A stretch of 64,000 bases of DNA, taken from IMG/VR virus record IMGVR_UViG_3300037247_001358, positions 5,344 through 69,343 of that record; one strand, 5' to 3'. This document shows positions 3,401-58,300 of the stretch, piece by piece. Position numbers and translations under genes: made by a program. The DNA comes from a virus. Position 1 is the first letter of the stretch; every line of letters starts with the position of its first letter. The notes beneath the pieces were generated by a model, which was given only the letters and a program-made list of their open reading frames with translations, was not told where the DNA came from and made no database searches.

Positions 3401-6269
3401 CGCTCTCAGCGACACGCGCCCACTGCCTCGAAGCGTACCAGGCGGTCTGCTCCTTGGGCGACCAGCCGGGCTTGACGATGCCGATGAACCTGTCAAGGAG
3501 CTGGACGTTGTCGGCAAGCTCCCTGCGGATGGCCTGGTCAGTGACGCGGAGTGCCCCAGCGTAGGTCGTCGGACCCCGTATCACCGACGGCTGGCGGGCC
3601 ATCTGACGGACGATGTCGGAGGGGACGTCGTAGTCTAGGGCGTAGGTCTCCAGCATCCGATCGATCTTCTTGAGCGCCCCGGCCATCGCCTCCCCCGTCC
3701 CAACCTTCTGCGCCTCGTCCAGGACAGGCATCACATCGGAGCTAATGAAGTCCATGATCGGCGCTAGGTCGTGGGTGGCGAAAAGCTCGACCTCCTGTCC
3801 CTCGTGCTTGAGTACCTCCCTGGCGAACCGGCGGCCATAGTCGTGCGGCGAGAGGACACCGGACGCCACACCCACCTCCATGCGGTCGAGCCGTCCCTGG
3901 AGAGCCGGGACGATAACCCCTCCAAGATCATCCATCCCCTCCGGCAGTGCCTTGCTACCGAAAAAGTAGAGGCCAATCTCGTCGGCGAAGGCATTCTCGG
4001 CAAGACGGATCTCCTTAGCGGTTCGACCAGCCTTCTCCATCACCCCACTCACAGGGGCGAACAGACCCCGGATCTTGCCGCCGGGGGCGAGGCCCATGTG
4101 GTACTGCCGCTGGAGCTGGCTCATAAAGGTCGCCCGGCGGAACGCCTTGTCCACCCTCCCGGCTATATGGACCGGTGCCATCACAGGATCCCAGAAGCGC
4201 CTGCGCTGCCCGATCTCCTTCGCCGGTTGCAGGCGGGCCTTCTGAATAAGCTGGAGGCTGTCCTCGAAGCCCTCCTGACCCGCCTCAAAGAGCGACCGGC
4301 TGAGAATATCGTGGGAGCCGGTAATGCGGGTGACGGTACGCTCGACATCGAGCGGCGTGATCCCCAAGGGCTTGAGCATCCTCTCCCAGACCTGTGGATA
4401 GCGCCCCCCACCCCTCATCACCGTCCCCGTCTCCAACCAGAGCGAACGGGCGGTGGCAGAGAAGCCCTCACGGGGGTGGAAGGCAGAACTCCACATCAGG
4501 CGGATGAAATTGCTCACTACGTTAAGCCAGATGAAGCCTGGGTTGTTGATAGTAACGGCCGCCGTCACCCCCTTGATCAGGCCAGCCATCGGGAAGTACC
4601 ACCGGGAGAGGAAGCGGCCGAACTTGGTAGCGTTCCAGAGGTCCCGCTGCGTCATCTCGGCAAAGGCGCGGGCCTTAGCGACGACGTACTCGGGGATCGC
4701 CTGCTCCAGGTCGGCGCGGGCGATCAGCGTCTCACCACGCGCCAGCGCCCCCCGGACATCGTCGACGGTAGCCTCGGCACGATAGAAACCCGCCTCCGCC
4801 CAGTCGTCGATCGTCGAACCGATCTCCTTCAGGGCGTCATCGAAGACATCCGATTGCTTCTCAGCAATGCGGGCACCGAAGTCGAGCATGTCGTCGTTGG
4901 TCTCGCGCAGACCAGGCAGATTCTCGCTGACCCAGCGGGTCGGTTTGCCGGTTTTGAAGGTCTCACCGATCTCGGAGATGCGCGCGGGCTCGCGGGCGAG
5001 GGCCGCCTTGATTGGCTTCAGGCGGCGCTCCAGCGTCACCGCCACCGAGTCGGCGAAGAGGTTGGCGGGCTTCTCGAAGAGGAGGCGTGAGATACCCTTC
5101 ACCGGCTCCGTCACCCTCTGCGCCGCATAGGACGCCTCTGGCATCCGCGTCAGCGCCTTGTAGCTCTCCAGCTTGAAGAGTCCTGTGATGCCACTCTTCG
5201 AGAAGGCGGCGCGGCGGCCAGTGGGCGTGAAGAGGCGAAGGAACCGGCTAAGAGGCGCTCCCCCCGTAACCGCCTTCAAGGGCACCGTCACGGGCTTGGC
5301 AACCCAGCCAATGGGGACGAAGTTGAGCGGATCCATAGCGACCCAGCCCAGCATATTAGCCAGGAAACCAGCGCCGCCCAGAGGGTTCTCTTGGAAGTAG
5401 CGCTCCAGCTCGGTAGCGGCCGCCTCGCCAGTAAGGCCGTCCGCCATGATGCGCTCGACCTCCCGCATTGCGTCGCGCTCATGCTGACGCTCCCAGTCCC
5501 AGAAGTTGAAGAGGCTGAAGTCCCACAGCCGCGTAGCGAAGGCTTGACGGAGGTAAGGATCAGGGATGGCGTTCTGGTAGTAGCCCTGGCCGATCACCTC
5601 CTCGATACGCTCGACGGTCTCACCAGTGAAGAGGCCGCTGAACGCATCCCAGGCGGTGCCAAACGGGTTGCCAACGATGTTGCGGAGGGCACTCTCGTCC
5701 TTCCCCATCTTGTTCAGATCACGCTCGACGAGATCCGCCACCAGTGTCTGAGGCTCGGTCAGCCGCATGTACTGCATGAAGACGGCGGGATCCTCGAGTT
5801 GCTCGGCCAGTTGCTGGTCAAGGACGAAGGTCGGGTCGAACGGGAAGTCCCCCACCGCCAGCCGGGCATCACTGTCTATCGAGAAGGGCAACCCCTGGAG
5901 AGGGCGCTGATCGATGGGAACGGCCTCCGGCGTGAGTTCCGCCATAAGCCTAGTAGTATAGGCTCCCTGCTCCTTGTAGTAATCGATCGCCTCCGCCCTC
6001 TTCCGTGCCACGTCGTCAATGCCAATAATCGCGTCGATGGCGTCGCGCGCCTGCGCGTCGGTGCGGATCTGAGACAGATCAACGCCCTCCGGCGCGAACG
6101 GATCACGACCGGTAAGGTTGAAGATATAGGGAAGGTTGGTAATGAGGTTGCGAAGACCTCGGCCGAAACCTCTCGCACGCTCGGGACCAAAGCGCAGCGA
6201 GGAGATCTGCTCGACCGCCTCCCCGCCAAAGTCGGTGGCCTTCTCAAAAGCCTTGCGGAAGAAGGACAT
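444..6269 (-). CDS. large putative internal virion / DNA ejection protein (1941 aa)
   Basis: Very long, helical-looking ORF downstream of portal in the virion operon, as typical for podovirus ejection proteins; no catalytic motif recognised. Confidence 0.6.
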   Translation of the reverse strand: MSFFRKAFEKATDFGGEAVEQISSLRFGPERARGFGRGLRNLITNLPYIFNLTGRDPFAPEGVDLSQIRTDAQARDAIDAIIGIDDVARKRAEAIDYYKEQGAYTTRLMAELTPEAVPIDQRPLQGLPFSIDSDARLAVGDFPFDPTFVLDQQLAEQLEDPAVFMQYMRLTEPQTLVADLVERDLNKMGKDESALRNIVGNPFGTAWDAFSGLFTGETVERIEEVIGQGYYQNAIPDPYLRQAFATRLWDFSLFNFWDWERQHERDAMREVERIMADGLTGEAAATELERYFQENPLGGAGFLANMLGWVAMDPLNFVPIGWVAKPVTVPLKAVTGGAPLSRFLRLFTPTGRRAAFSKSGITGLFKLESYKALTRMPEASYAAQRVTEPVKGISRLLFEKPANLFADSVAVTLERRLKPIKAALAREPARISEIGETFKTGKPTRWVSENLPGLRETNDDMLDFGARIAEKQSDVFDDALKEIGSTIDDWAEAGFYRAEATVDDVRGALARGETLIARADLEQAIPEYVVAKARAFAEMTQRDLWNATKFGRFLSRWYFPMAGLIKGVTAAVTINNPGFIWLNVVSNFIRLMWSSAFHPREGFSATARSLWLETGTVMRGGGRYPQVWERMLKPLGITPLDVERTVTRITGSHDILSRSLFEAGQEGFEDSLQLIQKARLQPAKEIGQRRRFWDPVMAPVHIAGRVDKAFRRATFMSQLQRQYHMGLAPGGKIRGLFAPVSGVMEKAGRTAKEIRLAENAFADEIGLYFFGSKALPEGMDDLGGVIVPALQGRLDRMEVGVASGVLSPHDYGRRFAREVLKHEGQEVELFATHDLAPIMDFISSDVMPVLDEAQKVGTGEAMAGALKKIDRMLETYALDYDVPSDIVRQMARQPSVIRGPTTYAGALRVTDQAIRRELADNVQLLDRFIGIVKPGWSPKEQTAWYASRQWARVAESATTENIKRLDAIRAVYDDLAKAGVERVSRDTIVPPGIVKRLPEDMRPAKAQVTLPTGKKVQAVRIGDVWDGYLTRRDASFDEMFSFVDDTVRKSSEAHAEIVAKIGEHVKKTFAEHRKIISEALEIGDDDAWRVAGEKVRQLYEQSAPRKAKIAGLGVNDVPAAQQFMDPSGVLASEIHEFKGFFMQSLRDDIPKLLRGDLKVESEAVRAMRATISDVQRGWSEVRDIMIANSRAATDFVMLNYLDQRGIDRIAQSVFPFEFWPTRDVAHWAIRGARAPGAFGAIMIAMFESQKFTEQYGYPQRLQYRIPIPLPGLGEFLQKMPGVGQLLEGGDFAPIYFIDPMRFIWPMTFMRDQFDDEARRNTLPGRVLDFFQNSTPLNVGPFQKFAFRHAGLLDKDAWRSTVLSGGPFGIPLTPLARATARFVFTGDTDAIPADEQNLYVEKGHFSPGWLRDLLGLEEDQWTTWRADRAMASLVATGELIPGASKEEQLEKAWIALDTQAGPEWKKAVKASQAETNLRRLTYWIGFPFGDVVGVNEGERIWFGLKAIYSEYSRRGKLDEFFKKYPEFELRTATVRGLSDPEEREKAVDTELYWQSIDKYVEKPFEKAVMDLENERSRLQELTQSQPVRDQLAVLRDELRSIRDEQETRREELDRAFPFRAKEISINRNPRGRALAEIRNAWFDIERGEGEDFDAFLFRREEFLSQFPTVTDTIAYEDMWQQIETQFMQIRIVAARQRDLAFQKDDFDEAQRIADERDTALEQLHKQAREVIARRDVERFLATFAWPKTEAQQEFEIADALKDLWFSLTSRGSPFTSRERGAISAYFRSMPVIQKYFPVEVLDLDDLSLEQRFALMRRKDFWSTYFSLRDNRTQVDYARMMKPELDEANALLGLPPLEIIDIEPYPVESSGDPLFSHIQMMAAINRREDIDEDEQLTDEEREELEKLMAEVGLAEADTALTDADVSRFLQPYTVADAPTPEPE

Positions 6270-18307: not shown

Positions 18308-18341
18308 GCCGACGCTTCTCACGGGGCGTCGGCTCTCTTTT
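18308..18341 (+). terminator. intrinsic terminator after tad1
   Basis: gccgacgc...gcgtcggc stem followed by tctctttt. Confidence 0.65.
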
Positions 18342-18401
18342 CGTGCTATAATCCCCCTCGGGCCTGGAGCCACCGAGCCCGGAGCCACGAAAGGAGCCAA
18401 C

Positions 18402-18671
18402 ATGGAACCAAAGCACTTCCTCCTCCGTGTCTGGTCGGTAAAGCAAGACCGCGCAGGGCCAGACGTACACGAACCAGTCCCTCCAACATGGGAAGTTCGA
18501 GCCGATACCGGTCCGGGATTGGAGCAGGCGTCCCTTTTCTACCATGAGAGCGACCCACGCAACCTTCCCAAGCCCGGCTACCTTATCCATATAACCGTCG
18601 ATGAGTGTCTTGTTCGATCAGATGGTCGGCCGACCGTCGAAGATGCCCCTCTAACGGAACCCGAGTCGTAG
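18402..18671 (+). CDS. hypothetical protein with its own promoter
   Basis: Extended -10 at 18344-18352, AAGGAG SD. Confidence 0.65.
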   Translation: MEPKHFLLRVWSVKQDRAGPDVHEPVPPTWEVRADTGPGLEQASLFYHESDPRNLPKPGYLIHITVDECLVRSDGRPTVEDAPLTEPES

Positions 18672-18915
18672 GGCTTCGCCGGCTCCAGGCCCTACTTCTC
18701 CTCCCTACTTGACAATAAGAGACCTGCTTACATCTACGGTTTTAATGAACCCCGGGGATTTTGGCTCTTCCCGACCCGTTTTCTTTACATAACGATACCC
18801 TTTTTCCAATTTTTCCTCTTGCCACGAGAGGGTTCAAAGCAGGGATCCGTGGTGTGTCGTAGGGAACGTCGCCGTTGCGTAAGGATGGTAGCGGGGTAAG
18901 GTACGGGTAAGGTGG

Positions 18916-18965
18916 CGCTCCGCTTCGCTCCGCGCTGCATCGTTCCGCTCCGCTGCGCTCCGCTC
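18916..18965. repeat. degenerate pentanucleotide tandem repeat (CGCTC)x10
   Basis: CGCTC CGCTT CGCTC CGCGC TGCAT CGTTC CGCTC CGCTG CGCTC CGCTC in a non-coding region. Confidence 0.75.
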
Positions 18966-19082
18966 TCGGTTGAAAGGATAGTAACGTATGTATGTGCCCG
19001 CGTGTGCGCGTACTGAGCGGGGGCAAAGAGATGACCCCTACGCAGTAGGGGCCTCTCGGGTTCGCGGCGGTTGTCGTCGATG

Positions 19083-19283: not shown

Positions 19284-19468
19284 CGCCCCTCCTCCTCCAG
19301 CTGGGAGTGCTCCCGGCACCCACCGTCCCGGTAGCAGTCGATGCAGACCACCGGCGCCGGTTCACTGACCGCCGGCGCCGGTTCACTGACCGCCGGCGGT
19401 TGCAGCACCTCCAACAACAGCTTCTCGAGGCTCTCCGGGTCCAACGTTCCCCGTTCTAGGATCCTCAT
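19280..19468 (-). CDS. small Cys-containing protein
   Basis: ATG with GAGGAGG SD; internal 21-bp tandem repeat. Confidence 0.55.
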   Translation of the reverse strand: MRILERGTLDPESLEKLLLEVLQPPAVSEPAPAVSEPAPVVCIDCYRDGGCREHSQLEEEGR

Positions 19469-19577: not shown

Positions 19578-19646
19578 ATCATAGCATCATCTGGCCCATA
19601 TGTCAAGTCACAGTGACTTGACATTCAGCCCCAGTTGTGGTACGCT
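19578..19646. promoter_or_regulatory. back-to-back divergent promoters with 25-bp palindrome
   Basis: Right: TTGACA(19618-23)-17-TACGCT(19641-46); left: TTGACA(19606-01)-17-TATGAT(19583-78); ATGTCAAGTCAC-A-GTGACTTGACAT at 19600-19624. Confidence 0.85.
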
Positions 19647-20933: not shown

Positions 20934-21311
20934 ATGGCGACGGACACAGAACGGGAGACGCTACAGGGCCGCATTTACCTGGCCCTCGAAGAGCTGGACG
21001 ACCATATCGAGAGGTTGGAAGGCGACGAGCTGGCCTCGTTCCTCGATAGTCCCGACTACAGCGGGACCCTGCATGAGATAGCCGACGGGTGCGTTCCGGT
21101 CTACAACGCGGACATTCTCGACGTGGCGGCGAGCGACCATAACGTCTCGCTACGAGAGCCTGAGTGCGGGCCGGCGTTCGACGGCACGCCTACGCCCGTG
21201 AACATCGCAGCGGCCAACATCTACGAGCTGATCAGCGAGGCGCTGTACGCCGACATTGAGAGACGTAAGGAAGAGTTGGAGGTCGATAGCGAAGAAGGGG
21301 CGGCCGAATGA
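20934..21311 (+). CDS. ocr: Ocr (T7 gp0.3)-like DNA-mimic antirestriction protein
   Basis: Highly acidic; LHEIADGCVPVYNADILDVAASD and ANIYELISEALY align with recalled T7 Ocr [23 protein letters not shown] and ARIYEQLTIDLW. Confidence 0.8.
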   Translation: MATDTERETLQGRIYLALEELDDHIERLEGDELASFLDSPDYSGTLHEIADGCVPVYNADILDVAASDHNVSLREPECGPAFDGTPTPVNIAAANIYELISEALYADIERRKEELEVDSEEGAAE

Positions 21312-23120: not shown

Positions 23121-23523
23121 AAAGATGGGAGCCTACGGCGAGCCGTGGAGCGCAGAGGAAGGCGATGGCTATGTTCGCAGCCTCACAGCACCACCCTCCG
23201 GCTCGCGCATCTGTCAAGTCGTCCGCAATAGGGAAGCCTACGCCCGCCGGATCGTCGCCTGCGTGAACGCGGCGGCAGGGATACCAACGCCGATTCTGGA
23301 AGTGCTGACACCTGAAGGCTCATGGGCGGACCGCTTCACAAAGGCATGGATAGCAAAGTACGACACGCTGCTAGAGGCGCTGCCAGACATCGAGCTGCTG
23401 GCCCGCGTCGCTGAAGCCCTGGCCTATCGTGGGATAGAGCCAGCGTCCGACGTAGAGAAATTGCGCGTCGCAGCCGGGCGAATCCGTGCCACCATCGCAG
23501 AGGTGGAGCGCAGACAGACTTGA
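23113..23523 (+). CDS. hypothetical phage protein
   Basis: ARRIVACVNA motif common in phage proteins. Confidence 0.7.
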   Translation: MAKKMGAYGEPWSAEEGDGYVRSLTAPPSGSRICQVVRNREAYARRIVACVNAAAGIPTPILEVLTPEGSWADRFTKAWIAKYDTLLEALPDIELLARVAEALAYRGIEPASDVEKLRVAAGRIRATIAEVERRQT

Positions 23524-23548: not shown

Positions 23549-23669
23549 TTCGGTAGACACCCAGGGCACCCCGCCGCACCTAGCGAGAGACGTGAGCGTG
23601 TGCGTTCAGCCGCAACCGACAGAACCTAGACAACCTAAGACAGACCTGACGCACAGAGGAGGCGAGGAC

Positions 23670-27865: not shown

Positions 27866-28375
27866 ATGGGACGTGAAGCGAGACGAGTGCGACTGGGGCT
27901 GGAGGAACCCCAAGACGAGACGTTCTGGGGCTATCTGCTGGACCCCATACCCTGCCGCTCATGTAACGAGACGGGTAAGAACGCGAACGGTGATTGGTGC
28001 TGCATCTGCGAAGGTGAGGGCAACGTCCACCCAAAGGTGAGCCTACCCGCGTATCCGGTGGACGCACTGCCGTCATGGTTTCGTGTCCCCGAACTGGTCA
28101 AGGACTTTGGTTGGCAGATGTGGGAGACGACCAGTGAGGGCTCGCCCATGTCACCTATCTTCAAGACACCAGAAGAGTTGGCCGCTTGGCTAGCGGAAAC
28201 AGGTGCGTCGGCTTTTGCCAGGATGACGGCCACCCGTGAAGAGTGGCTTGGTATGATTCTCCATCACGGCAGCGCCTCGAGTGCTGTTCTCCATGTTGGC
28301 TCTGATGGACGAGGACAGATGGAATCCGGCGTAGCAGCCCTCAGCAAAGAGCCGACACGGGATACTGAGACCTAA
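27866..28375 (+). CDS. conserved phage protein with DnaJ-type zinc finger
   Basis: CxxCxxTG...CxxCxGxG; WQMWETTSEGSPMSPIF.T.EELA.W. Confidence 0.7.
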   Translation: MGREARRVRLGLEEPQDETFWGYLLDPIPCRSCNETGKNANGDWCCICEGEGNVHPKVSLPAYPVDALPSWFRVPELVKDFGWQMWETTSEGSPMSPIFKTPEELAAWLAETGASAFARMTATREEWLGMILHHGSASSAVLHVGSDGRGQMESGVAALSKEPTRDTET

Positions 28376-29265
28376 CCCAGGCTCTCGGACTGCTGGCGCA
28401 GCGCCTCGGCGAACAGGTCGGGGCGCTTCCCTATCCGCTCCAGCACGTCGGAGCCGGACAGCTCGGGCGGGTCCACCCCGTCATGGCCACAGAACTCGTA
28501 GAGGGCGAGCCGGAGGAACTTCGCTGGCAGGCTGTACCGCTGCACGGGCTCCAGGCAGGCCGCTAGGCCGGGCAGGGAGGCCGGCCCGGGGAAGGTGACG
28601 ATCTTGTGGTCCGGGTAGCCGACGTTGACGGCGGCGTGGATCTCTTCGGCGAACTCCCAGCAGGCGTCCAGGTCTGAGACCGGCAGGCTACCGTTCTGAC
28701 GCAGTGTTTGGAAGTAGGGGCCGGGTGCCCGCACTGACGAGACGAAGTGTGGGGAGGCCGGAAGGCGGGAGGAATAGAAGGATGCAACCCGATTCAGGAA
28801 ATCCTCTTCCTCCTCAGCCGAGGAGGAGGATCCTTCTTCAGAAGGATCCTCCGAAGAGTCTGGTTCAGAGACCCTCTGGTTATCTAGGACACCCGTGTCC
28901 TTAGGGGTTAGGACACGGGTGTCACTAGGTAGGGACATACCAGGTATCTGACGGATGACAGTGTAGAGGTTTGTGTCCAGCTCCTTTGTAGCTTCCCCGG
29001 AGTCATCTTCCTTCCAACGGTGCTCCACCCACAGCGCGCCAACCTCTTTAAGTTCTATAAGGGCGCGGGCGATGTGCCGCACGGAACACTGGCAACGCTT
29101 CGCTAGGTAGGCCCGGCTAGAGAAAGAGGTGCGTGTCTTTCTGTCGGCCATCGTTGCCAGCACGCAGTAGAGGCGTATCGCTGTGGGGCTGATCTTCTGG
29201 TCCAGAACCCACTCTGGGAGTATGGCGAAGGGTCCGGTGTCGCTCTGTACGTCTATCTTCGGCAT
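28372..29265 (-). CDS. N-terminal wHTH replication-initiator-like protein (lambda O/DnaD-like)
   Basis: FAILP...ISPTAIRLY..L...A......SR..LA..C..S...I.RAL.EL...G; ATG at 29265 with AGAGGAG SD. Confidence 0.75.
   Translation of the reverse strand: MPKIDVQSDTGPFAILPEWVLDQKISPTAIRLYCVLATMADRKTRTSFSSRAYLAKRCQCSVRHIARALIELKEVGALWVEHRWKEDDSGEATKELDTNLYTVIRQIPGMSLPSDTRVLTPKDTGVLDNQRVSEPDSSEDPSEEGSSSSAEEEEDFLNRVASFYSSRLPASPHFVSSVRAPGPYFQTLRQNGSLPVSDLDACWEFAEEIHAAVNVGYPDHKIVTFPGPASLPGLAACLEPVQRYSLPAKFLRLALYEFCGHDGVDPPELSGSDVLERIGKRPDLFAEALRQQSESLG
28885..28926. repeat. paired palindromes GGACAC-NN(N)-GTGTC inside the initiator gene (iteron-like)
   Basis: AGGACACCCGTGTCCT and AGGACACGGGTGTCACT in the linker-coding region. 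Confidence 0.5.
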
Positions 29266-29390
29266 CGTTTTCTCCTCTTGACTTAGAGGCACCGCCCTGT
29301 TAGAGTGGGGGTACCGACGTATCAGGCCGCGATCATCATCGCACACCTCACCCCTGCCCGCAAGGCGGGGGCTCGGTGTTTCTTGGGGGC

Positions 29391-29419
29391 TTGACATTAG
29401 TGCGACAGACTTGTATGCT
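29391..29419 (+). promoter_or_regulatory. promoter P1 TTGACA-17-TATGCT
   Basis: Spacer contains operator-like TGCGACAGACTTGT. Confidence 0.75.
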
Positions 29420-29424
29420 GAAGA

Positions 29425-29556
29425 CGGACGGCCAGCTTCCTCCGCACGGAGGCGGCGCAGGGAGGCAGCAAGTTGATAAGGACATCTCGTAGGGAAAGGG
29501 AGTGGGAGCAGGGGGATCCCCCGCCACCGGACACCCCCCTGCTCCCAGGCCGCTCC
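29425..29556 (+). ncRNA. putative small structured RNA 1
   Basis: Downstream of P1, non-coding, 12-bp stem GGGAGCAGGGGG/CCCCCTGCTCCC with loop containing CCCCGCCACC. Confidence 0.45.
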
Positions 29557-29558
29557 TC

Positions 29559-29588
29559 TTGACACACAGGTCTGATTCCATGTAGATT
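29559..29588 (+). promoter_or_regulatory. promoter P2 TTGACA-18-TAGATT
   Basis: Direct reading. Confidence 0.6.
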
Positions 29589-29593
29589 GAGGG

Positions 29594-29684
29594 CGGAGGT
29601 GCCACCTCAGCCCTCCATAGGTCGTCGAGAGTTCCCCGCCGGGCAGTCCCACCCCGCCACCAGCAACCGGCGGGGGCTCTCTCC
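29594..29684 (+). ncRNA. putative small structured RNA 2
   Basis: About 15-bp stem GAGAGTTCCCCGCCGG/CCGGCGGGGGCTCTC with loop containing CCCCGCCACCA. Confidence 0.45.
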
Positions 29685-29686
29685 CA

Positions 29687-29725
29687 CAGACAGACTTGAC
29701 GCACACCCCCAAGCCCTGCTACGCT
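29687..29725 (+). promoter_or_regulatory. promoter P3 TTGACG-18-TACGCT within CAGACAGACTTGACGCA box
   Basis: Direct reading; extended -10 TG. Confidence 0.7.
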
Positions 29726-29731
29726 ATTCAT

Positions 29732-29812
29732 GGGGCACCGAGCCCCTCGCGGTAGCCGGTTGGTCCTTCCCCCTGGTATACTGTTCGGAGCCAAGCTCGG
29801 TGCCCCGCTTTC
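29732..29812 (+). ncRNA. putative small structured RNA 3
   Basis: Perfect 12-bp closing stem GGGGCACCGAGC/GCTCGGTGCCCC starting at the expected TSS of P3, followed by a T-rich tail. Confidence 0.5.
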
Positions 29813-29830
29813 TTGGAAGGAGGAAAGCTG

Positions 29831-30016
29831 ATAAAGATGCCTGAAGACTACCCGTTATGGTGCCTATCCTGCCGCCGGGAAGTCCCCGTGTGCCCTGCTG
29901 AGATGGGGCCGCCACCAATCGACATGTACTGCCCCGACTGCGGTCACCTACTATGTGAACTGCGGGAGGATCACGACCGAGCCGCTTTGGCGGGGGCGAG
30001 GAAAGTGAGGGAATAG
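29831..30016 (+). CDS. zinc-ribbon protein
   Basis: CLSC...CPDCG; start either ATA 29831 (7 nt from AGGAGG) or ATG 29837. Confidence 0.65.
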   Translation: MKMPEDYPLWCLSCRREVPVCPAEMGPPPIDMYCPDCGHLLCELREDHDRAALAGARKVRE

Positions 30017-30589
30017 ATAGGTCGATGGGCAGGTGTCCTCTCCGCCCTGGCGGTGACTTGGGCGATGGGGACCGGCCTGCTGCTGGGTCATGCGTATGAT
30101 TCCCCCGATCCCGACCGTCCTGAACCTAGTGTTGCTCGCGTTCGCGTTGCGTCTCCTGTGGAGCGCGGCTTCCAGGCGATGGCGTACGTGGAGGCGGCCG
30201 AGCAGGCTGCTCGCAACGCCTTGGTTCAACAGACGAGACCGGCACCCACCCCAACGCTGGGTGTTGGAGGGGCTGTCGAACTCCCCGTTTCCACAAAACT
30301 TCCCCCGCTCCGACCAGCCTTCGTCGAAGCCTTCGGAGACCGGTGGCAGTACGCCTTCGAGGTAGCTCGCTGTGAAACGGGAGGATTTCGCCCTGACGTT
30401 ATCTACGGCCCAACGAGAGGGAGTGCGGGTGAGCGAGGCTTGTTTCAACTTTTGTCACCTAGCGGGGTTGGGGACGCTTTTCTAGCAGCGGGTTATGCGG
30501 ACTTCTTCGACCCCTACCAGCAGATCGAGTTCGTCGCCGCCTACACGGCGGAGAACGGATGGTTAGCATGGCGCGGCTGCCTGCCGTAG
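30017..30589 (+). CDS. membrane-anchored lytic transglycosylase (SLT/lysozyme-like)
   Basis: Catalytic ARCET, GLFQ, FDP, GW..W motifs; N-terminal hydrophobic anchor; probable ATA start (GTG 30053 alternative). Confidence 0.75.
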   Translation: MGRWAGVLSALAVTWAMGTGLLLGHAYDSPDPDRPEPSVARVRVASPVERGFQAMAYVEAAEQAARNALVQQTRPAPTPTLGVGGAVELPVSTKLPPLRPAFVEAFGDRWQYAFEVARCETGGFRPDVIYGPTRGSAGERGLFQLLSPSGVGDAFLAAGYADFFDPYQQIEFVAAYTAENGWLAWRGCLP

Positions 30590-30825
30590 ACCTGGAGGCG
30601 GCGGCCTGCACCCTATCGCCGACGGGGGCGCACCATTGGGTGCTGCGCTACACAGCATCGCAGGGACATTGCCGTCACTGTGGGGAGGCCCGCAGGTTTC
30701 AGACGACCTACCAGCCGGGGCGGGGACGGGCTGGCCACATCGTCCGCTCTCGAGAGGGTAGCGATCCTGCTCCAGCACGGAAGATGCGCCAGGATCTAGA
30801 AAAGCAATCAGCGGAAGAGGGGTGA
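30568..30825 (+). CDS. zinc-binding hypothetical protein
   Basis: C..SPTGAHHW...CRHCG. Confidence 0.6.
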   Translation: MARLPAVDLEAAACTLSPTGAHHWVLRYTASQGHCRHCGEARRFQTTYQPGRGRAGHIVRSREGSDPAPARKMRQDLEKQSAEEG

Positions 30826-30832
30826 AACACCT

Positions 30833-31045
30833 TTGGCTGTAGACAAGGAGACGGCTACCCTGCTCCGGGATCTGTATGTCATCACCCACATGCAGGCCCA
30901 GCTCGATAAGGAAGGGCGTACGTTGGTCGTAAAGTGGGCTGCTCTACGCCTGCGGCTGGAGGATGCACTGATACGGAATGGTGTGGAGATTCCACACCGG
31001 CCGGAAATAGGATCCGTAGAGGAGGAGTTTGATGCCAAGACCTAG
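30833..31045 (+). CDS. hypothetical protein
   Basis: TTG start with GAGGGG SD. Confidence 0.55.
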   Translation: MAVDKETATLLRDLYVITHMQAQLDKEGRTLVVKWAALRLRLEDALIRNGVEIPHRPEIGSVEEEFDAKT

Positions 31046-32009: not shown

Positions 32010-32366
32010 ATGATCATCCACGACAAGGGCACTACTATCGTCGTCACGGTCACCGACCACGGGCCGGTTGAGGTGGCGACGGACGAGAACCAGGGACAGG
32101 TGTTCCTCGACTGGTGGAAGGAGCGGGCGCGGGACTACCGAGCGCCCCGCTACCGGCCAACCGGCGCCGACCGCCGGATAGCCGCCCGGCTCGTCAGCAG
32201 GTACGGACTTGACAGACTAAAACGGGTTGGATTATCATTCTGGCGCCGGTACTCCGACCCGCTCATCTCGGGGGAGTACCGCCATCACATGATCCTGTTT
32301 CAGCGCCACTTCGCTGAGGCAGAACGAGACGACCAGGAAATCGAGACGACCGAGATTTCTGACTAG
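32010..32366 (+). CDS. hypothetical protein (possible helicase loader/replication accessory)
   Basis: ORF immediately upstream of DnaB-like helicase; function is positional inference. Confidence 0.55.
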   Translation: MIIHDKGTTIVVTVTDHGPVEVATDENQGQVFLDWWKERARDYRAPRYRPTGADRRIAARLVSRYGLDRLKRVGLSFWRRYSDPLISGEYRHHMILFQRHFAEAERDDQEIETTEISD

Positions 32367-45373: not shown

Positions 45374-45714
45374 TGGCTACTCAAGAGCCCTGCTTAGTCC
45401 ACGGGCCACAGCCCATTCCTCCCCATCGAGCAGGGCGGTTCCTCAAGCTAATCTGTTGCGTCCACCTCGATCAGCAGTCGGTCGTCCTCTATCGACAGTT
45501 CCCTCCTTGGGGGGACACTATACACCGATACCCTTGGAGCTTGCGGTGGGAACTACCTTATCCTCCCCCAGACGAGGACAAGTTACGTGAGAGCTACCAC
45601 ATTGAGTTTGCTGACGAGCGAATAGCGCAGGCCATCTTCGAGCACTGTCGACGGGAGATGCTGAGCGACGCCACACCCAACTCCGCTAGGAACTGGACGG
45701 CGTTGCTAATATGA
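45373..45714 (+). CDS. hypothetical protein
   Basis: TGATG-coupled, GAGG SD. Confidence 0.55.
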   Translation: MATQEPCLVHGPQPIPPHRAGRFLKLICCVHLDQQSVVLYRQFPPWGDTIHRYPWSLRWELPYPPPDEDKLRESYHIEFADERIAQAIFEHCRREMLSDATPNSARNWTALLI

Positions 45715-48700
45715 CGGCACCAAAGGACTGCGATCGCTGTCCTGCCCTGGTCAAGTGCCGGAAGACGGTGGTAAATGGTTGGGGCAACCCGGATGCCCGC
45801 TTCGCGTTCGTAGGACAGAACCCCGGAGAATCTGAAGACGCTCAGGGCCGGCCCTTCATCGGACGGGCCGGCCGCGTCCTCGCCACCATGATCCGGTCGG
45901 CTGACATCAACGTCGACGACGTCTTCCTCACCAACGCCGTCCGCTGCCTCACCCCGGCGATTAGGAAGCCTCGCAAGGATGAGTGGTCCGCCTGCCGGGA
46001 GTTCTTGCTGGAGGAGCTAGGGCGGGTCAAGCCGGACGTCATCGTCGCTCTTGGCGAGGTGGCCGCCCACACCCTCTACGGCCGTACGTCGCTCGACTCT
46101 GTGCTCGGGCAGACCCTCGTGCAGGAGGAGCTGGGCATCCAACTCATCGTCACGTATCACCCGGCCTTCGTATTGCGTGGTCAGTGGAACGCCGTCCCGC
46201 TCATCCTCTCCCACTTCGAGAAGGCCAAGCGCATCGTCGCCGGGACACAGACGCTCGGGGAGCTGGGCGACTACGCACCGATCCTCACTATCGAGAACCT
46301 CAAGCTCCTACGGGACTACCTGCTGTCGGCTCCGCTTATCCACCTTGATTCCGAAACAACCGGCAAAGAGTGGAAGGACGATGAGCTGCTTTGCATCTCC
46401 TTTGCTACCGAGCCGGGTGAGGGCTACGTCGTCCCCATCCTCCAGCGGGGAGGGGGTCGCTTCTGGGCCGACACTGAGCAAGCGGAGGCGATGATGATCA
46501 TAGGTGAGATCCTCGCTTCGCCAGTACCCAAGGCTCTCCAGGGTGGGGCCTTCGACATCAGGTTCTTCGAGCGGGAGCGTTCTTACCACATCACCGCACG
46601 GACGGCGTTCGGTTGGAGGTTGTTCAACCTCCAGCAGGACACCATGCTCATGCACCGGCTAACCCACGAGTACCTACCCAAGGAATCGACGCCGAACGAA
46701 CTCCCCCACCTTCTCAGCTCCTATTCGGACATGCCTGTCTACGGGGACGAGGTGCGCAAGCAGTCGAAGAACAAGCTCCACATGGATGAGGTGGAGAACC
46801 GCTACCTCTGGGAATTGGCGGCCGCCGATGCGGACGCCGTCGCCCGCCTCGTCCCTATCCTGGGACAGCAGCTAGACGAGGACGGCGACAGCCGCTGGAT
46901 CTACGAGAACGTCAGCATCCCGATGGTTCGCTGCTGCCAGGAGATGACCCGGCGGGGGATGCTCGTCGACCAGGACTACTTCACCAGCCTGTGCGAGCAC
47001 TACGAGCAGAAGGCCAGAGAGCTAGAGAAGCAGGCGTTTGAGATCGCAGGGCGGGAGTTCAACCCGAACTCGACGAAGCAAGTCCAGGACGTGCTGTTCC
47101 GCGAGCTGGCCCTCCCCAAGTCCGGTCGCAAGACCGGGGCCGCTACCGAGTGTGACGCCTGCGAGAAGGGTGCCTGCGAAAAGCACGATCAGGTCTCGGA
47201 GGACGCGCTGCTCGACATCAAGGGGCAGGTTGACCACCCCATCCTCGATGTCCTAATGGAGATCCGCAGTGTCTCTAAGCTACGGGGCACCTATCTCGCG
47301 GGCACCGGCGGAGACAGCCAGGGCTTCCTGGGCCACATCCGGCGAGACGGCCGCATCCACCCGGAGTTCAAGGGCGGGTTTGCGGAAACTGGAAGAGCCG
47401 CATCCCAGAATCCGAACGCCCAAAACATCCCCAAAGGTGTCGAGATCGAGGAGCTAGGTACGAAGAACGCCTTCCGCCGTACCTTCATTGCTCCCCCCGG
47501 TCACGTCCTCATGGAAGCAGACTGGTCCCAGGCAGAGGTCTGGGTGACGGCCTACGGGCTGGCCGAGCAGTTCGGCGACCGGACCCTACTAGAGATCCTC
47601 GAGTCGGGGCGCGACGTCCACTGCGTCACACCGGAGACCCGGATTTTGACGGCGGATCTCCTTTGGAAGGAGGCCGGACAGATCGTAGTTGGGGAGAAAA
47701 TCCTTGGCTTCGATGAGGATCGGGCCAAAGGCAAGACACGGCACTACCGGGCCGCAACTATCGTAGCCGCAAACAGGCAGAAGGCCCGTGTGTACGAACT
47801 ACGCCTATCGGACGGGACGCGCCTACGCTCTACCGGAGACCATCGATGGCTGGTGAAGACGCGGGGTAAAGTAGACCGGGATACCAGAATGTACGCTTGG
47901 GTTCGCACCGATGAACTGGCCCAGCGTTGCAAGAGCCCTTGGAAGAAGCGCGGGCCTGTCCTGCCACGATACTTCCAACCGTGGGAGAGTGGGCAAGACT
48001 ATGATAGTGGCTTCTTGGCGGGGGCATTTGATGGTGAGGGTTCCTTGTCAGGCTACGCGGGGCGTTACCGAGCACGGCTGGCATTCGTGCAGAACGACAA
48101 CGCTCTCCTACGCGACGTCGAGATCGTCCTAAAGCAGAAGGGACACACCTACGGACGACATGAGCGGAGCACCTCAACATCGCCTCGGACAGGGCTACCT
48201 ACAGGTAATACAGTCGTACAGCTCGAACTGAACAACGGATTTGCTGGAACGCTCCGCTTCCTGGGCGAGATGCGCCCACCACGCCTTCTCGAGAAATGGC
48301 AGGAGATGTTCGAGAAGGATGAGTTTCTGGAGATGCGTGCCATCGATCAGGTCGTCGTTGAGGAGGTCATCGACCTGGGGGAGCAAACCATCATGGCGCT
48401 CCAATCCAATTGCCAAACCTACTTCGCCGAAGGGTTTGGGGCACACAACACCGCTGTCGGCCGCGCCATCTGGCCCGTCGACCTAGAGCTGGATGAGTTC
48501 GAGTGGGCTAAGGAGCACGACGACCTCCGCACCGACGCCAAGGTCTTCACCTTCGGGATCACCTTCGGCCTCACCGTTGAGGGGATCATGGAGCGGCTAC
48601 ACTGCTCGAAAGAAGACGCTCAGCGCTACCTGGTGGCCTACCTGGAGATGGCACCGGGCCTGCGAGACTACAAGGACTACGTCCAGAACACCATACTGGC

Positions 48701-49181
48701 GGGAGAGCCTCTCACCAACAAGTTTGGGAGGCAGTGGCACTTCCCTCAAGTGGAAGTCATGAAGCTGTGCAACGCCAGGTTCGACCTCGAAGAACTGTTC
48801 CGTGAGGGAGTTAACCGGGGTATTCAAGGCGGGGCGTCCGACCTCCACTCACTAGCCCACGTCGACACGGAGTCCAACCCGAAGATGCGTGAGGTCTTCC
48901 GCATCATCGACGCCGTCCATGACTCCTGCCTCGCCGAGGTCCCGGCACCGGATCTCGCCACCGTGCTCGAGACGGCCTGGATGGTGAAGCACCTCTGGCA
49001 GGAGATCGCGCTCAACACCGTGCTGGCCGATGGCTCGAAGCTCGGCTGGCAGATCCCGGTAGAGGTGAGTTGGGGCCGGAACTGGGGGGATATGCCGTAC
49101 GTCCTAACCGCCCGTGGTGGCCTCCTCTACAAAGGCCAGCCGGTGCAGACGGATATGACGGCAGCACTTCCCATAGCTTAG
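45711..49181 (+). CDS. polA: family A DNA polymerase with N-terminal family-4 uracil-DNA glycosylase domain and 3'-5' exonuclease; contains an intein
   Basis: UDG: CxxCxxL, GQNPG..E...G.PFIG.AG, NAVRC, YHPA; exonuclease DSET; polymerase TGR..S.NPN.QNIP, ADWSQAE, AK...FG, IQG, VHDS. Confidence 0.95.
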   Translation: MTAPKDCDRCPALVKCRKTVVNGWGNPDARFAFVGQNPGESEDAQGRPFIGRAGRVLATMIRSADINVDDVFLTNAVRCLTPAIRKPRKDEWSACREFLLEELGRVKPDVIVALGEVAAHTLYGRTSLDSVLGQTLVQEELGIQLIVTYHPAFVLRGQWNAVPLILSHFEKAKRIVAGTQTLGELGDYAPILTIENLKLLRDYLLSAPLIHLDSETTGKEWKDDELLCISFATEPGEGYVVPILQRGGGRFWADTEQAEAMMIIGEILASPVPKALQGGAFDIRFFERERSYHITARTAFGWRLFNLQQDTMLMHRLTHEYLPKESTPNELPHLLSSYSDMPVYGDEVRKQSKNKLHMDEVENRYLWELAAADADAVARLVPILGQQLDEDGDSRWIYENVSIPMVRCCQEMTRRGMLVDQDYFTSLCEHYEQKARELEKQAFEIAGREFNPNSTKQVQDVLFRELALPKSGRKTGAATECDACEKGACEKHDQVSEDALLDIKGQVDHPILDVLMEIRSVSKLRGTYLAGTGGDSQGFLGHIRRDGRIHPEFKGGFAETGRAASQNPNAQNIPKGVEIEELGTKNAFRRTFIAPPGHVLMEADWSQAEVWVTAYGLAEQFGDRTLLEILESGRDVHCVTPETRILTADLLWKEAGQIVVGEKILGFDEDRAKGKTRHYRAATIVAANRQKARVYELRLSDGTRLRSTGDHRWLVKTRGKVDRDTRMYAWVRTDELAQRCKSPWKKRGPVLPRYFQPWESGQDYDSGFLAGAFDGEGSLSGYAGRYRARLAFVQNDNALLRDVEIVLKQKGHTYGRHERSTSTSPRTGLPTGNTVVQLELNNGFAGTLRFLGEMRPPRLLEKWQEMFEKDEFLEMRAIDQVVVEEVIDLGEQTIMALQSNCQTYFAEGFGAHNTAVGRAIWPVDLELDEFEWAKEHDDLRTDAKVFTFGITFGLTVEGIMERLHCSKEDAQRYLVAYLEMAPGLRDYKDYVQNTILAGEPLTNKFGRQWHFPQVEVMKLCNARFDLEELFREGVNRGIQGGASDLHSLAHVDTESNPKMREVFRIIDAVHDSCLAEVPAPDLATVLETAWMVKHLWQEIALNTVLADGSKLGWQIPVEVSWGRNWGDMPYVLTARGGLLYKGQPVQTDMTAALPIA
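47622..48449 (+). mobile_element. intein with LAGLIDADG homing endonuclease motif (276 aa)
   Basis: Begins CVTPETRIL after DVH, block B TGDHRW, FLAGAFDGEGS, ends HN before Thr+1. Confidence 0.92.
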
Positions 49182-49184
49182 TCG

Positions 49185-55359: not shown

Positions 55360-58300
55360 TTAGAATGCCTCCGCCCTTTCCTTGAAGTAGAAGAACACGT
55401 TGACATCCTTGGGTGCTGTCCCCCCGACCGCCGAACAGCGGGCGCGAATGAAGATGTTGTCGCCCACCCAGGAGTTGTCCAGCACCGTGTCGTCTACCTC
55501 GGTACTCGTGTCCAGGGCCAGGGTGTAGAGCACCGACGGGCTGGAGAAGGCGGGGTTGTCGTCGGCCTCGATTAGGATCGTCGTCGTACCAGTACCCGCC
55601 GTTCCTGCGATGGCCTTTGCCCGAATAGCGGTGAAGGCACCGTGCTCACCCGACTCGCCGACGCACTTACCAGGGCGGCCACCCATGACTCCTATTACCA
55701 GGTTTTCGGCCAGGGCTGGGAACTCAGCGATGTGGATGGTGAAGATCTCCTCGAAGACCGGGGCCGCGCTTACTCCGGCTGCCACGAGTACCGTGGCGTC
55801 CGCTCCCAGCGCCAGCTCCTGCTCGTCGCCGGAGCCGTCCGTGTAGAGCACCTTCCAGTTGGCGTGCTCGGTGTGAGCAGCGATGCCGTGGACCGCGTTG
55901 TGGGTGACGCCGTGATTGGTGTGGGCATGGAGGGCATCGGCGTCGGATGTGTCAGTCAGCGTCTCTAATTCAGCGGCGGTCGCGCCCTGGCCAGTGTGGC
56001 TCTCAGGAGCGTGGGCCTCGGCGTGGTCACGGGCCGCAATGTCCACGCCGTCCACGGTACCCGACACGAGGATGTTGCCTGCCACATCCAGCGGCGCGGC
56101 AGGCGAGGAGTCCGCCCCAAGCTTCACGTTCCCCACGAAGCGGGACTCCGACAGGTTGCGGATGCCGATGTTGGTGGCCGCTGCGGTCAGGGCCCCGATG
56201 TCTATGCCATACTGGGTGGTGATAGCCCCCAACGATCCCGTCGGGTCGAAGATGCGGATGTCCGTTAGGGTTGTAATGATAGGGGCAGAAATCCCAACGA
56301 AGTATGGCGACCAGGCCACGACATCTACAAATGTCCCCGTACCCCCACCAGGAGCGGATAGCCCGAACCCAGACTGAAGACCGGTTTGAGTCCCAGAGAG
56401 GGTCTCACCCGAAACAACCTGGATAATAGAACCGAGGAGTGTCCCAACGTGGCTCCTCGTCACCGAGCTAGTGTGAGTGATGACACTCGCCGTTCTTAGG
56501 TCGAATCCCAGAAGGCTACCCGCCGGGTCAGTCCTGTCCTCCCGTAGGCGCAGCACCTCGTCGGCCTGAAGCGCCGCATCGGCACCAATCGCCATGTGGC
56601 CCTCGACGAATAGGCTGTCAGGTGTCCGCCACTCACCGGAACCATCTTGGTAGAGCTGTACGTCCCCGACAAGAATCCCGCCGCCAGAACCTGCTGTCGG
56701 TAGCTTGAGTTGTCCCGTTGTCTCATCCAGCTCGAACTTAGAGGATGACCCCAGGAAGACGGAGCCTTTAGTGGCGTGGGCCGTAGAGACGAGAGTGAGA
56801 TCCTCGCCAGAGGCGATCCCGCCCTGGAGCGTCTGCCCGCCAGATCGCCCGGCGAGCAGCGCGTACTGTGCATGATCGTCACCCCCAAGCCCAGCTAGGT
56901 CTGCTCCATGATCTATCGTTCCATCCGGCTGCGACGTCAGCGCGATGATCCCGCTTGCATCCGGTGCCGTCAGCGTCCGTGTATTGCCCGACGCGATTCC
57001 GGAGAGCTGGAACTCTAGGAGCTTAGTGACGTCGCTCTCGTCGAACAGCTTGAAGGCATTGTCCGCGAACTCCGTCGTGATGGCTGACGTGCCCCCACCC
57101 GCAACAAGGTTCGGGATCAGCCCCCGGAGGTCTGTCTCTTGCTCGGAAGTCCAAGTGCCTCCCGAAGCCGCCTGATGACGCAGGGTGAGCCGTGAGATCA
57201 GGAAGGCCGTGCCCTTGAAGTCGTCCGGGATGGTGAAGTCGGTGAAGCCGGAGACGTCGTCTATCGCATCGCCCAATTTGTTGTAGGAGCCGGACGGAAG
57301 GTTGATGAAGAGATGCGTCTCGTCTGTCTCCTCGCTCACGCTGGCCCAGATGACGAGGTTGAAATACTTCCCCGACATGGAGCCGCCCGCCGAGTCGGTG
57401 AGGAGATCGGCGAGGTCCGTGACCGGCGTGTAGGGGGACACGCTGTCGTTGACGACATGGACGTTCGTCCCCGTCGCTGTGTCGAATGCGGGCACCGTAT
57501 GGAGGTGCATCTGGTAGACCTCACCCGCCGTCGTGGCGAAGTCCACATTATCCGGGGCACCGGCATTCGTCGTGATCGTGAGGGTCTGCGCGACGCCGCT
57601 CTCGTAGGTGGCGGAATGCTGCCGGATCCACCGACCGAGATGCGAGTAGTGCCCCTGCTCATCGCTTCCCTGAACATGGTCATGCCACACATGGACGACA
57701 AGCGCGTTCTCGGTCTGTGTGGTCGCGGCCGATTGCAGGATCACGATGGCAATCGGAGCGTGTTCTTCGCTGGGCCAGCCCGACGTGCTGACGGTTAGGG
57801 TCTTGTTCGACTGGAGGATATAGACGTAGTTGGTCTGCGGAGACGTATCGCTGCCGGCGGTCAGAGAAACGGTGACCGCAGGCGTCGTGTCGAACGTAGA
57901 GAACCCATCGGAGAAGACGAGGGTGAGGTCCCCACCTCCCGCCTGATCCAGGGCCAGCGTGACTGTTGTCCCGTTGGATGAGACGACCATTCGTGTCGTC
58001 TCCAAGATGGAGCCGTTGAAGAAGTCGAGCTGGGAAGTCCCACCTACACGGAAGTGTTCTGTGCTAGAGATCGTTGCGCGTAGAATGTTGTCACTGCCTA
58101 CGCGCCAGTGGGTGTCCCGGTCGGTGTCGATGATCTCGGTAGAGCTGTGGGCACCACCAACGTAGACGTTGGATCCGTCGGGTGAGAAGGCCCACACGAA
58201 ATCGTGAGCGTCGTCCAGGGCGATATCGTCGTTTCCGATGCACTCGATGTTGCCCGTGCCGTGCTTGAAGACCACCGTGCGCGCGTCGTGCGCCGGGTAG

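Follow-up and report, generated by a model that had tools for sequence, protein, structure and literature searches.

In the genome of a very divergent phage, predicted promoters and hairpins alternate along a non-coding gap that separates a minus-strand gene for a replication initiator-like protein from a plus-strand replication and nucleotide-metabolism operon. Does this gap act as the control region of the operon, or does it house a series of separately transcribed small RNAs, as a preliminary description of the DNA had proposed? We addressed this question in a window of 64,000 nucleotides, bases 5344–69343 of a 69,343-bp virus record of IMG/VR with a terminal repeat of 127 bp. The sole run containing the window is a marine-sediment metagenome (DNA), which is probably its source, and no RNA run was listed with the window sequence. 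Matches of the window's proteins among phages all stayed below 36% identity, those of the terminase and RecA leading to phages of mutually unrelated hosts, and the lineage has no cultured relatives. A search for tRNA and tmRNA genes found none. The only substantial relative, contig L019, was found by an IMG/VR scan with the helicase; it has nine proteins in common with the window (42–63% identity) and stops short of the gap region. No match to the gap DNA was obtained by blastn against 50,697 phage records, and a scan of genome contigs for homologous intergenic DNA gave nothing. IMG/VR scans with the initiator protein, RecA, the initiator-family alignment and a degenerate P1 pattern returned no usable homologous intergenic DNA, a single metagenome scan returned only a 1,894-nt contig, and no comparable gap was seen in Arthrobacter phage Laroye around a distant homologue of the initiator's HTH. 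Contigs from the marine-sediment DNA run, aligned at 80% likeness, include diverged variants of the gap; what is said of these variants below holds among the matches listed.

The gap is bounded by the ATG of the minus-strand gene at 29265, a start common to the homologues P0002 and P0003 of the initiator, and by the ATG of the first plus-strand gene at 29837 (Table 1). GC content by codon phase is flat over 29260–29800, with no periodicity. The DNA had been described as about 470 bp of non-coding sequence; its non-coding nature is borne out, and its length is instead 571 bp (29266–29836). A 29-codon ORF with a TTG start (29473–29562) and GGGAGG 7 nt upstream was rejected as unsupported, being without codon periodicity. 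Plus-strand genes extend from approximately 19750 to 52625 and minus-strand genes lie outside these limits, the gene at 28372–29265 being the sole exception; beyond the neighbourhood of the gap, gene calls were made by a rough codon-usage script, which overlooks some real genes. The best PHROG match of the minus-strand gene was phrog_270, “replication initiation protein” (8.8e-13), and its family profile gave weak DnaD matches in the PDB (E 0.012–0.017). In an alignment of ten family members the N-terminal winged helix is swapped or variable, while the acidic linker and the C-domain are conserved. Of the homologues, P0002 shows 82% identity and is encoded on a contig of 5,269 nt, and P0004 is encoded on one of 15,497 nt.

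Table 1 Features of the gap and of its neighbouring genes, in window positions
Feature	Position	Strand	Description	Basis or remark
Replication initiator-like gene	28372–29265	−	297 aa, HTH_36/DnaD-like	Pfam PF13730, 4.2e-9; phrog_270
Non-coding gap, proposed control region	29266–29836		571 bp	Flat codon-phase GC, repeat enrichment, promoter density
P0, predicted promoter	29278–29306	+	TTGACT-17-TAGAGT, TG before −10	Promoter scan; overlaps RBS region of initiator gene
H0, hairpin	29343–29384	+	Inner stem CCCCTGCC/GGCGGGGG, loop CGCAA, outer 5-bp stem, then TTTCTT	
P1, predicted promoter	29391–29419	+	TTGACA-17-TATGCT	Promoter scan
H1, hairpin	29503–29547	+	13-bp perfect stem, 19-nt loop (29516–29534), no U tract	
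P2, predicted promoter	29559–29588	+	TTGACA-18-TAGATT	Promoter scan
Inverted repeat at predicted +1 of P2	29586–29618	+	16-nt arms, 88% complementary	
H2, hairpin	29627–29681	+	15-pair stem, one bulge, 24-nt loop (29643–29666), no U tract	
P3, predicted promoter	29686–29725	+	Class element ACAGACAGACTTGACGCACA, −35 TTGACG at 29696, 18-nt spacer, −10 TACGCT	
H3, hairpin	29732–29814	+	75-nt branched hairpin, 12-bp perfect basal stem, then GCTTTCTT	
P4, candidate promoter	29774–29782	+	Extended −10 TGGTATACT inside H3 loop	Consensus match only
Small hairpin	29807–29828	+	GCTTTCTT/AGGAAAGC	Half-sequesters Shine-Dalgarno GGAGG (29819–29823)
Zinc-ribbon-like protein, first operon gene	29837–30016	+	59 aa, four cysteines	Family matches all sub-threshold
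Protein	30053–30589	+		Distant relatives in four viral contigs
dCMP deaminase	Downstream of gap	+		
DnaB-like helicase	32393	+		
Primase	35290	+		
gp32-like protein (SSB)	36337	+		
RecA/UvsX-like protein	37217	+		
PolA	45711	+		

The series of predicted promoters and hairpins in the gap is real and non-random. Exact 10-mers recur there as six direct pairs (mean 0.36 in dinucleotide shuffles) and nine inverted pairs (mean 0.31), counts that none of 500 shuffles reached, and inverted 11-mers likewise lie above all 500 shuffles. The heptamer CCCCGCC occurs five times against 0.32 expected. When the four successive units, 0 to 3, were aligned together, mean column identity was 45%, with no overall homology.

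A promoter scan of 28000–31000 returned three sites (29278, 29391 and 29559) against 0.5 ± 0.6 in 50 shuffles. The preliminary description had placed three promoters at 29391, 29559 and 29696, and all three are present: the first two pass the scan, and the third fits the pattern TTGACN-N18-TANNNT, falling below the scan threshold because its −10 box matches at only 3 of 6 positions. The possible fourth, an extended −10 element near 29773, was also located, by consensus match, as TGGTATACT at 29774–29782. P0 and hairpin H0 constitute an upstream unit that the description had not included. Over both strands of the window the pattern TTGACN-N16-19-TANNNT has 14 distinct sites, four of which fall in the gap, all on the plus strand (Poisson P for at least four, approximately 9e-6). 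As judged from sequence, the gap holds four or five predicted promoters of the same direction, and at least three predicted promoters of sigma-70 type stand in the same sense within a few hundred bp before the operon. In L019 the pattern occurs twice, and both sites are orthologous to window promoters, at 32209 (helicase) and 36269 (gp32), the gp32 promoter retaining AGACTTGACGTACA; these pattern matches thus behave like real, conserved promoters. Among the variant contigs listed, the loose end of one retains TAGAGTGGGGG at P0, the −10 box of P0 is kept, and so are TTGACA and CAGACTTG at P1, where the spacer differs.

P3 belongs to a promoter class that is repeated in this phage. The class 20-mer GCAGACAGACTTGACGCACA is found on the plus strand at 23510 and 36259 without mismatch, at 29686 with one mismatch and at 49184 with two; these are the four copies with at most two mismatches, all on the plus strand. 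A further copy at 23636 has three mismatches, and five others with 5–6 mismatches look like chance occurrences. Each of the three copies other than P3 lies at most 120 nt upstream of the next plus-strand ORF, the gp32-like and amidase genes included. Since these three copies precede protein genes, the simplest view of unit 3 is that it is the leader of the operon itself, with P3 as the operon's proximal promoter and not as one devoted to a small RNA. A ten-base part-copy of the class element of P3, GACAGACTTG (29404–29413), occupies the spacer and −10 edge of P1, which hints at a regulator common to both promoters. An exact 17-mer of the class was also looked for in IMG/VR; it occurred in 11 stretches, none of which (0/11) shares any protein with the window, and these were set aside as chance matches.

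A long stem follows each of the promoters at 29391, 29559 and 29696, as had been described, and the three differ in how they fare against shuffled sequence. H1 is the second-longest perfect inverted repeat of the 69-kb genome (loop of at most 30 nt), with a fold z-score of −3.51 and 0 of 200 shuffles folding as well. For H2 the corresponding values are −1.95 and 7/200, and for H0 (29343–29379; −23.3 kcal/mol) they are −0.96 and 30/200, so that H2 is marginal and H0 not significant. H3 begins at the predicted +1 of P3, 7 nt past its −10 box, and together with the hairpin at the ribosome binding site (29733–29836) reaches z −3.70 (0/200); its role could be that of a 5′ stem-loop, of a partial terminator or of a site where the RNA is processed. 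The inverted repeat at the start of P2 (z −3.83 and 0/200 over 29589–29615) has no second copy in the window, and could be either a 5′-terminal RNA hairpin or a DNA operator. The full 421-nt leader folds with z −2.23 (2/100), and the predicted P1 transcript adopts a three-way structure that is closed by pairing of its 5′ end to the bases immediately following H1 (z −2.58, 1/200). From the end of each hairpin to the next −35 box (H0–P1, H1–P2 and H2–P3) there are 11–14 nt. A conformational switch in unit 2, in which two CCCCGCC copies would compete for one GGCGGGG, had also been suggested; the segments are there, and the alternative pairing is far weaker than the main one (−15.6 vs −30.4 kcal/mol), so that the switch would cost approximately 15 kcal/mol. 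A general role for a 5′ stabiliser hairpin after every promoter was unsupported, as the 5′-proximal structure fell below the 5% background quantile for only 2 of 14 predicted promoters, P1, P2 and P3 not among them.

Whether the hairpins could end transcripts bears directly on the choice between a leader and small RNAs. The clear gene-end terminators of the phage, which stand at the ends of short units, have U-rich tails; one at 18308–18333 (+) closes a 4-nt loop with 11 bp and continues into the tail TCTCTTTT, and another at 19053–19033 (−) closes a 3-nt loop with 9 bp. H1 and H2 are followed by GGCCGCTCCTCT and GCTCTCTCCCAC, which contain no U tract, and their loops measure 19 and 24 nt. A terminator scan flagged none of H0–H3, and the short-loop GC hairpin with a U tract that would mark the 3′ end of a small RNA was not found. 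A TTTCTT tail follows both H0 and H3, which makes partial termination at these two hairpins plausible. On the plus strand further into the operon no strong terminator-like sites were seen. Recombinant mycobacterial RNA polymerase is described as failing to terminate at hairpins that lack a U tract (PMC3993855); for H1 and H2 this is an analogy only. From the absent U tracts only, we infer that transcripts from P1 and P2 would read through H1 and H2.

On this evidence we tentatively favour, at a probability of roughly 0.45, a gap in which tandem promoters feed one structured leader of the replication operon and some transcripts possibly terminate at H0 and H3. The sequences, their departure from chance and the class membership of P3 are observed; promoter activity, read-through and all functions given to the hairpins are what we infer in the scheme that follows. 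The gap would control transcription of the replication and nucleotide-metabolism operon from 29837 onward, with the host's sigma-70-type RNA polymerase starting at several same-sense promoters. P1 and P2, with their consensus −35 boxes, would serve as starts, and P0 and P4 may provide extra ones. Transcripts from P1 and P2 would mostly pass H1 and H2 and so carry a long, highly structured leader, and H3 would form at the 5′ end of transcripts from P3. Together with its U-rich tail and the Shine-Dalgarno hairpin, H3 may stabilise the message, be a point of processing or halt some of the transcripts just before the first gene, and both H0 and H3 may yield some short RNAs as by-products or regulators. 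A factor reading the class element may, via GACAGACTTG at the −10 region of P1, shut off P1 as P3 turns on. Several observations tell against such a leader. The spacing of 11–14 nt between hairpin and −35 box resembles that of terminator–promoter modules of independent small genes, the P1 transcript is predicted to fold closed on itself, and a plain leader has no need of a loop decamer common to two hairpins; the regularity of the spacing and the shared motif are unexplained by the leader model. In addition, if H3 and its tail terminated well, the upstream promoters would not serve the operon.

The spacing, the closed fold and the shared decamer count in favour of the small-RNA proposal, in which P1–H1 and P2–H2, and perhaps P0–H0 and P3–H3, would be independent genes. 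The large loops of their RNAs would expose the single-stranded, C-rich CCGCCACC to a protein or a G-rich RNA target, with a decoy, anti-defence or base-pairing role. A consensus promoter lies ahead of each structure, the unit of P1 folds closed, and stems that are unrelated to each other share their loop decamer. Virulent Pseudomonas phages also make short RNAs by termination near promoters in 5′UTRs (PMC10914365). The anatomy put forward for separately transcribed small RNAs is sound as far as same-sense promoters, stable structures and a common motif are concerned, but the membership of P3 in a class of gene promoters and the missing U tracts speak against it. H1 and H2, with their very large loops, are unlike the phage's own gene-end terminators. 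Pairing of the loops to the phage's translation starts was at background (means of −13.95 vs −14.25 and −16.04 vs −15.97 kcal/mol). Of the hairpins only H3 favours the plus strand (−43.4 vs −38.4 kcal/mol), and the minus-strand folds of H0, H1 and H2 are at least as good as those on the plus strand; an origin at the RNA level on the plus strand is thus not indicated for H1 or H2. We hold independent small-RNA genes to be unlikely, if by no means far-fetched.

Comparison with known RNA families agrees with the earlier impression that no described family is recognisable here. Rfam 15 gave no match in the whole window at gathering thresholds, which also counts against the small RNAs just discussed. 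At E ≤10 the interval 29200–29900 returned 22 rows, all far below threshold and mostly microRNA-precursor models on H1, the best scoring 22.2 bits against a threshold of 70. RNA anti-CRISPRs, which consist of a solitary repeat unit, are near-identical to the CRISPR repeat of the host; no CRISPR-DR family was among the 22 rows. The actinobacterial 6C sRNA has two C-rich loops, and the hairpins of the gap resemble it in their C-rich single-stranded loops, though the 6C family had no row among the 22 sub-threshold matches for the gap.

The motif itself deserves closer attention. The decamer CCCCGCCACC does lie in the loops of two different stems, as had been noticed, at 29519 in H1 and at 29652 in H2. 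The shorter GCCACC occurs at 29523, 29601 and 29656, the second of these at the tip of the inverted repeat 29589–29615, where it had been reported. When the loops were shuffled, a stretch of at least 10 nt common to both arose in 53 of 20,000 trials, which makes the coincidence moderately unlikely given that both loops are C-rich. Four other copies of CCCCGCCACC in the window are in coding DNA, outside hairpin loops, which weakens the case for a dedicated small-RNA motif. Among the matches listed, a variant contig of low depth (4) differs within H2 only at 29651–29653, a change that alters the first bases of the decamer and leaves CCGCCACC intact; this is weak evidence in favour of a functional loop in small RNAs. 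In IMG/VR, CCCGCCACC is followed by a second CCCGCCACC at a distance of 108–138 nt in at least 120 stretches. Among those listed, none has both motifs inside a stem of at least 7 bp, the best enclosing stems being 6 and 6 bp against 13 and 9 in the window. One could see in H1 and H2 a new phage RNA module that is present twice, with unrelated stems, the same CCGCCACC loop and a promoter for each copy, and that would act in trans, as a decoy or by base-pairing, or in cis on the polymerase, to gate the replication operon or to counter the host; we regard this as unlikely.

The motif might also act within the leader, on the polymerase or on the nascent RNA. H1 and H2 could be antitermination sites of the nut or put type, by which transcripts begun at P1 and P2 would get past H3; alternatively, they could belong to a processed leader RNA like c4 of P1 or CI of P4, whose loops would base-pair to the arms of H0 and H2 that carry the G-rich GGCGGGGGCTC. 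In favour of such a role, the same loop motif is present once downstream of each of two promoters, with the terminator-like H3 downstream of both. The H1 loop is complementary to the 3′ arms of H0 and H2 at 10 of 11 nt, and the 3′ arm of H0 to the 5′ arm of H3 at 11 of 11 nt, in keeping with the excess of inverted 11-mers over all shuffles. The c4 RNA of P1/P7, CI of P4, nut of lambda and put of HK022 are structured RNAs that lie within leaders of early or replication operons. The gap resembles these systems in its structured leader, its repeated short complementary segments and the placing of one element after each early promoter. It differs from them in that no Rfam match to such families appeared at E ≤10 and no N-like or other partner protein was identified. 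Moreover, H3 is the only candidate terminator nearby, no strong terminator-like sites follow on the plus strand deeper in the operon, and transcripts from P3 would be without the element. A cis-acting RNA of this kind is in our estimation quite improbable.

A last possibility is that the repeats act as double-stranded or extruded DNA, the gap being a replication origin or a set of operators for the neighbouring initiator-like protein. Its position beside the initiator-like gene and the helicase/primase module would suit such a role, as would the enrichment of CCCCGCC and the good folding of H0, H1 and H2 on the minus strand. Ranked by length, the top three perfect inverted repeats of the genome (loop of at most 30 nt), at 28888–28923, 29503–29547 and 28825–28852, all fall within 28825–29547. 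However, the gap contains no tandem iterons and no set of three or more initiator-binding repeats. Its GC content of 0.48–0.76 per 50 nt keeps it out of the 15 lowest-GC windows of the genome and gives no AT-rich unwinding region, the AT-richest stretch being at 18700–18850. Repeated palindromic sites exist only inside the initiator gene, with no copy of up to three mismatches in the gap; they travel with the N-terminal DNA-binding module in homologues, and all the promoters point away from them. A match to a known origin structure, which the preliminary description had named as evidence that would overturn its proposal, was not found in the gap among the repeats, AT content and palindromes examined. 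An origin in the gap itself thus appears unlikely on sequence features, and a DNA-level element of either kind very improbable.

The palindromes of the initiator gene are of interest for that gene rather than for the gap. The site AGGACACCCGTGTCCT at 28886 and a copy with two mismatches at 28910 lie in the linker-coding part of the gene and encode the peptides DTRVL and KDTGVL, which recur only in two homologues with the same N-terminal domain. Lambda O is an initiator that has the origin inside its own gene. The initiator-like gene is similar to that of lambda O in its swappable N-terminal DNA-binding domain, its conserved C-domain and the palindromes in its linker-coding part, but it has two putative sites only and no AT-rich unwinding stretch has been demonstrated. 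A lambda-O-like origin inside the gene is a lead that follows from this comparison.

The structured leader that we favour for the gap has counterparts in better-known phages. In the early region of T7, the tandem promoters A1–A3 are followed by the RNase III site R0.3 before the first early gene. E. coli promoters serve the early region of T7, and RNase III processes the polycistronic transcripts of the phage at defined positions (PMC6938266). Similarly, the gap has several strong predicted host-type promoters of the same direction within a few hundred bases, then a long hairpin before the first gene of a polycistronic unit. The two share no sequence similarity, and the cluster of the gap, unlike that of T7, is located mid-genome ahead of a replication operon and not at the genome end, has hairpins between its promoters, and includes one promoter of a phage-specific class.

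A further parallel comes from virulent Pseudomonas phages, for which 42 terminators just downstream of promoters in 5′UTRs and 29 ncRNA candidates have been reported (Putzeys et al. 2024, PMC10914365). These terminators lie at most 250 nt from the promoter, so that a short RNA arises beside a read-through mRNA that shares its 5′ end (PMC10914365). The order of P3, H3 and a U-rich tail in the gap fits this pattern. With short RNAs documented beside full mRNAs in these phages, the leader and small-RNA readings of the gap may both be partly true. The Pseudomonas ncRNAs, as that source presents them, were mapped experimentally and are single units, whereas the gap is a tandem series known from its sequence alone; a common loop motif is not reported for them in the parts of that source used here.

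Beside a leader, the gap might also yield separate small RNAs. If the ordinary reading, a multi-promoter control region with a structured leader, holds, the locus would show clearly, at the level of sequence, the way in which an uncultured and very divergent phage of marine sediment controls its replication genes with host-type promoters, among them a 20-nt class of its own to which a distant relative has partly conserved counterparts. Should the loops be functional, a new structured RNA would join the short list of phage regulatory or anti-defence RNAs, and if H1 and H2 are indeed copies of an RNA module, the array would be no passive leader but a locus devoted to non-coding RNA.

The 20-nt sequence GCAGACAGACTTGACGCACA, which spans the -35 box and 10 nt upstream of it, is the conserved element of a phage-specific promoter class, and its copies are listed in the table together with the other features described here. 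The element is kept in part, as AGACTTGACGTACA, at 4942-4990 of L019, before the gp32 homologue of this only substantial relative of the phage, whose shared proteins are 42-63% identical to those of the phage. At 19600-19624, the TTGACA boxes of two divergent consensus promoters stand back to back and are enclosed by a perfect palindrome with 11-bp arms, ATGTCAAGTCAcagTGACTTGACAT. Within a small ORF on the - strand, next to these promoters, lies a 21-nt tandem repeat that contains the palindrome ACCGGCGCCGGT. In the non-coding gap beside the initiator gene, a 23-nt stretch of the P1 unit, GGGAGGCAGCAAGTTGATAAGGA (29460-29482), matches 29815-29837, where the replication operon's first gene has its true RBS, at 17 of 23 positions (74%); it may be a degenerate duplicate of that region, or the likeness may be due to chance.

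Repeats, promoter elements and large ORFs in the window
Feature	Position (strand)	Remarks
Two very large late-strand ORFs	444-6269 (-); 55360-59751 (-)	1,941 aa; 1,463 aa
Convergent canonical terminators	18308-18333 (+); 19053-19033 (-)	
(CGCTC)n / 15-nt tandem repeat	18916-18966	within 18334-19032
21-nt tandem repeat	19346-19398	2.5 copies, 96% matches
Divergent promoter pair	19606 (-); 19618 (+)	consensus match
Copies of 20-nt element GCAGACAGACTTGACGCACA	23510; 29686; 36259; 49184 (+)	
Degenerate copy of the 20-nt element	23636	immediately before RBS
11-bp inverted repeat with T-rich tail	28805-28830	inside initiator gene
12-bp inverted repeat	28825-28852	inside initiator gene
Palindromic site AGGACACCCGTGTCCT	28886	inside initiator gene
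14-bp perfect inverted repeat	28888-28923	built from two palindromic sites
Second palindromic site	28910	inside initiator gene; 2 mismatches vs AGGACACCCGTGTCCT

Most of the structural genes of the phage are unannotatable. Neither of the two very large late-strand ORFs matched a Pfam or PHROG family at the thresholds applied. The early-region protein encoded at 20934-21311 has a PHROG hit (5.5e-10) to the "ocr-like anti-restriction" family. DNA polymerase A (45711-49181) carries an N-terminal domain of the uracil-DNA-glycosylase superfamily; it likely also contains an intein, since its polymerase domain was matched in two stretches (the best being 422-640) and residues 661-821 gave a LAGLIDADG match together with weak intein-splicing matches.

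The approximately 700-bp stretch flanked by the convergent terminators (18334-19032) is a candidate origin or packaging site and includes the AT-richest part of the genome (18700-18850, GC down to 0.40). The ten proteins P0001-P0010, the family of the initiator gene (28372-29265), form a modular initiator family: the serine/glutamate-rich linker and the C-terminal domain are highly conserved, and the N-terminal winged helix attached to them is of three or more unrelated types. Among the matches listed, variant contigs from the source sample are ~86% identical to the C-domain DNA of the initiator gene, and they diverge from the window left of ~28858. The linker-coding part of the gene (28805-28925) holds three strong inverted repeats. 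The coding content of the two palindromic sites is the peptides DTRVL and KDTGVL, which are conserved only among homologues having the same N-terminal domain. These repeats may represent a lambda-O-like origin, or an operator, inside the initiator gene.
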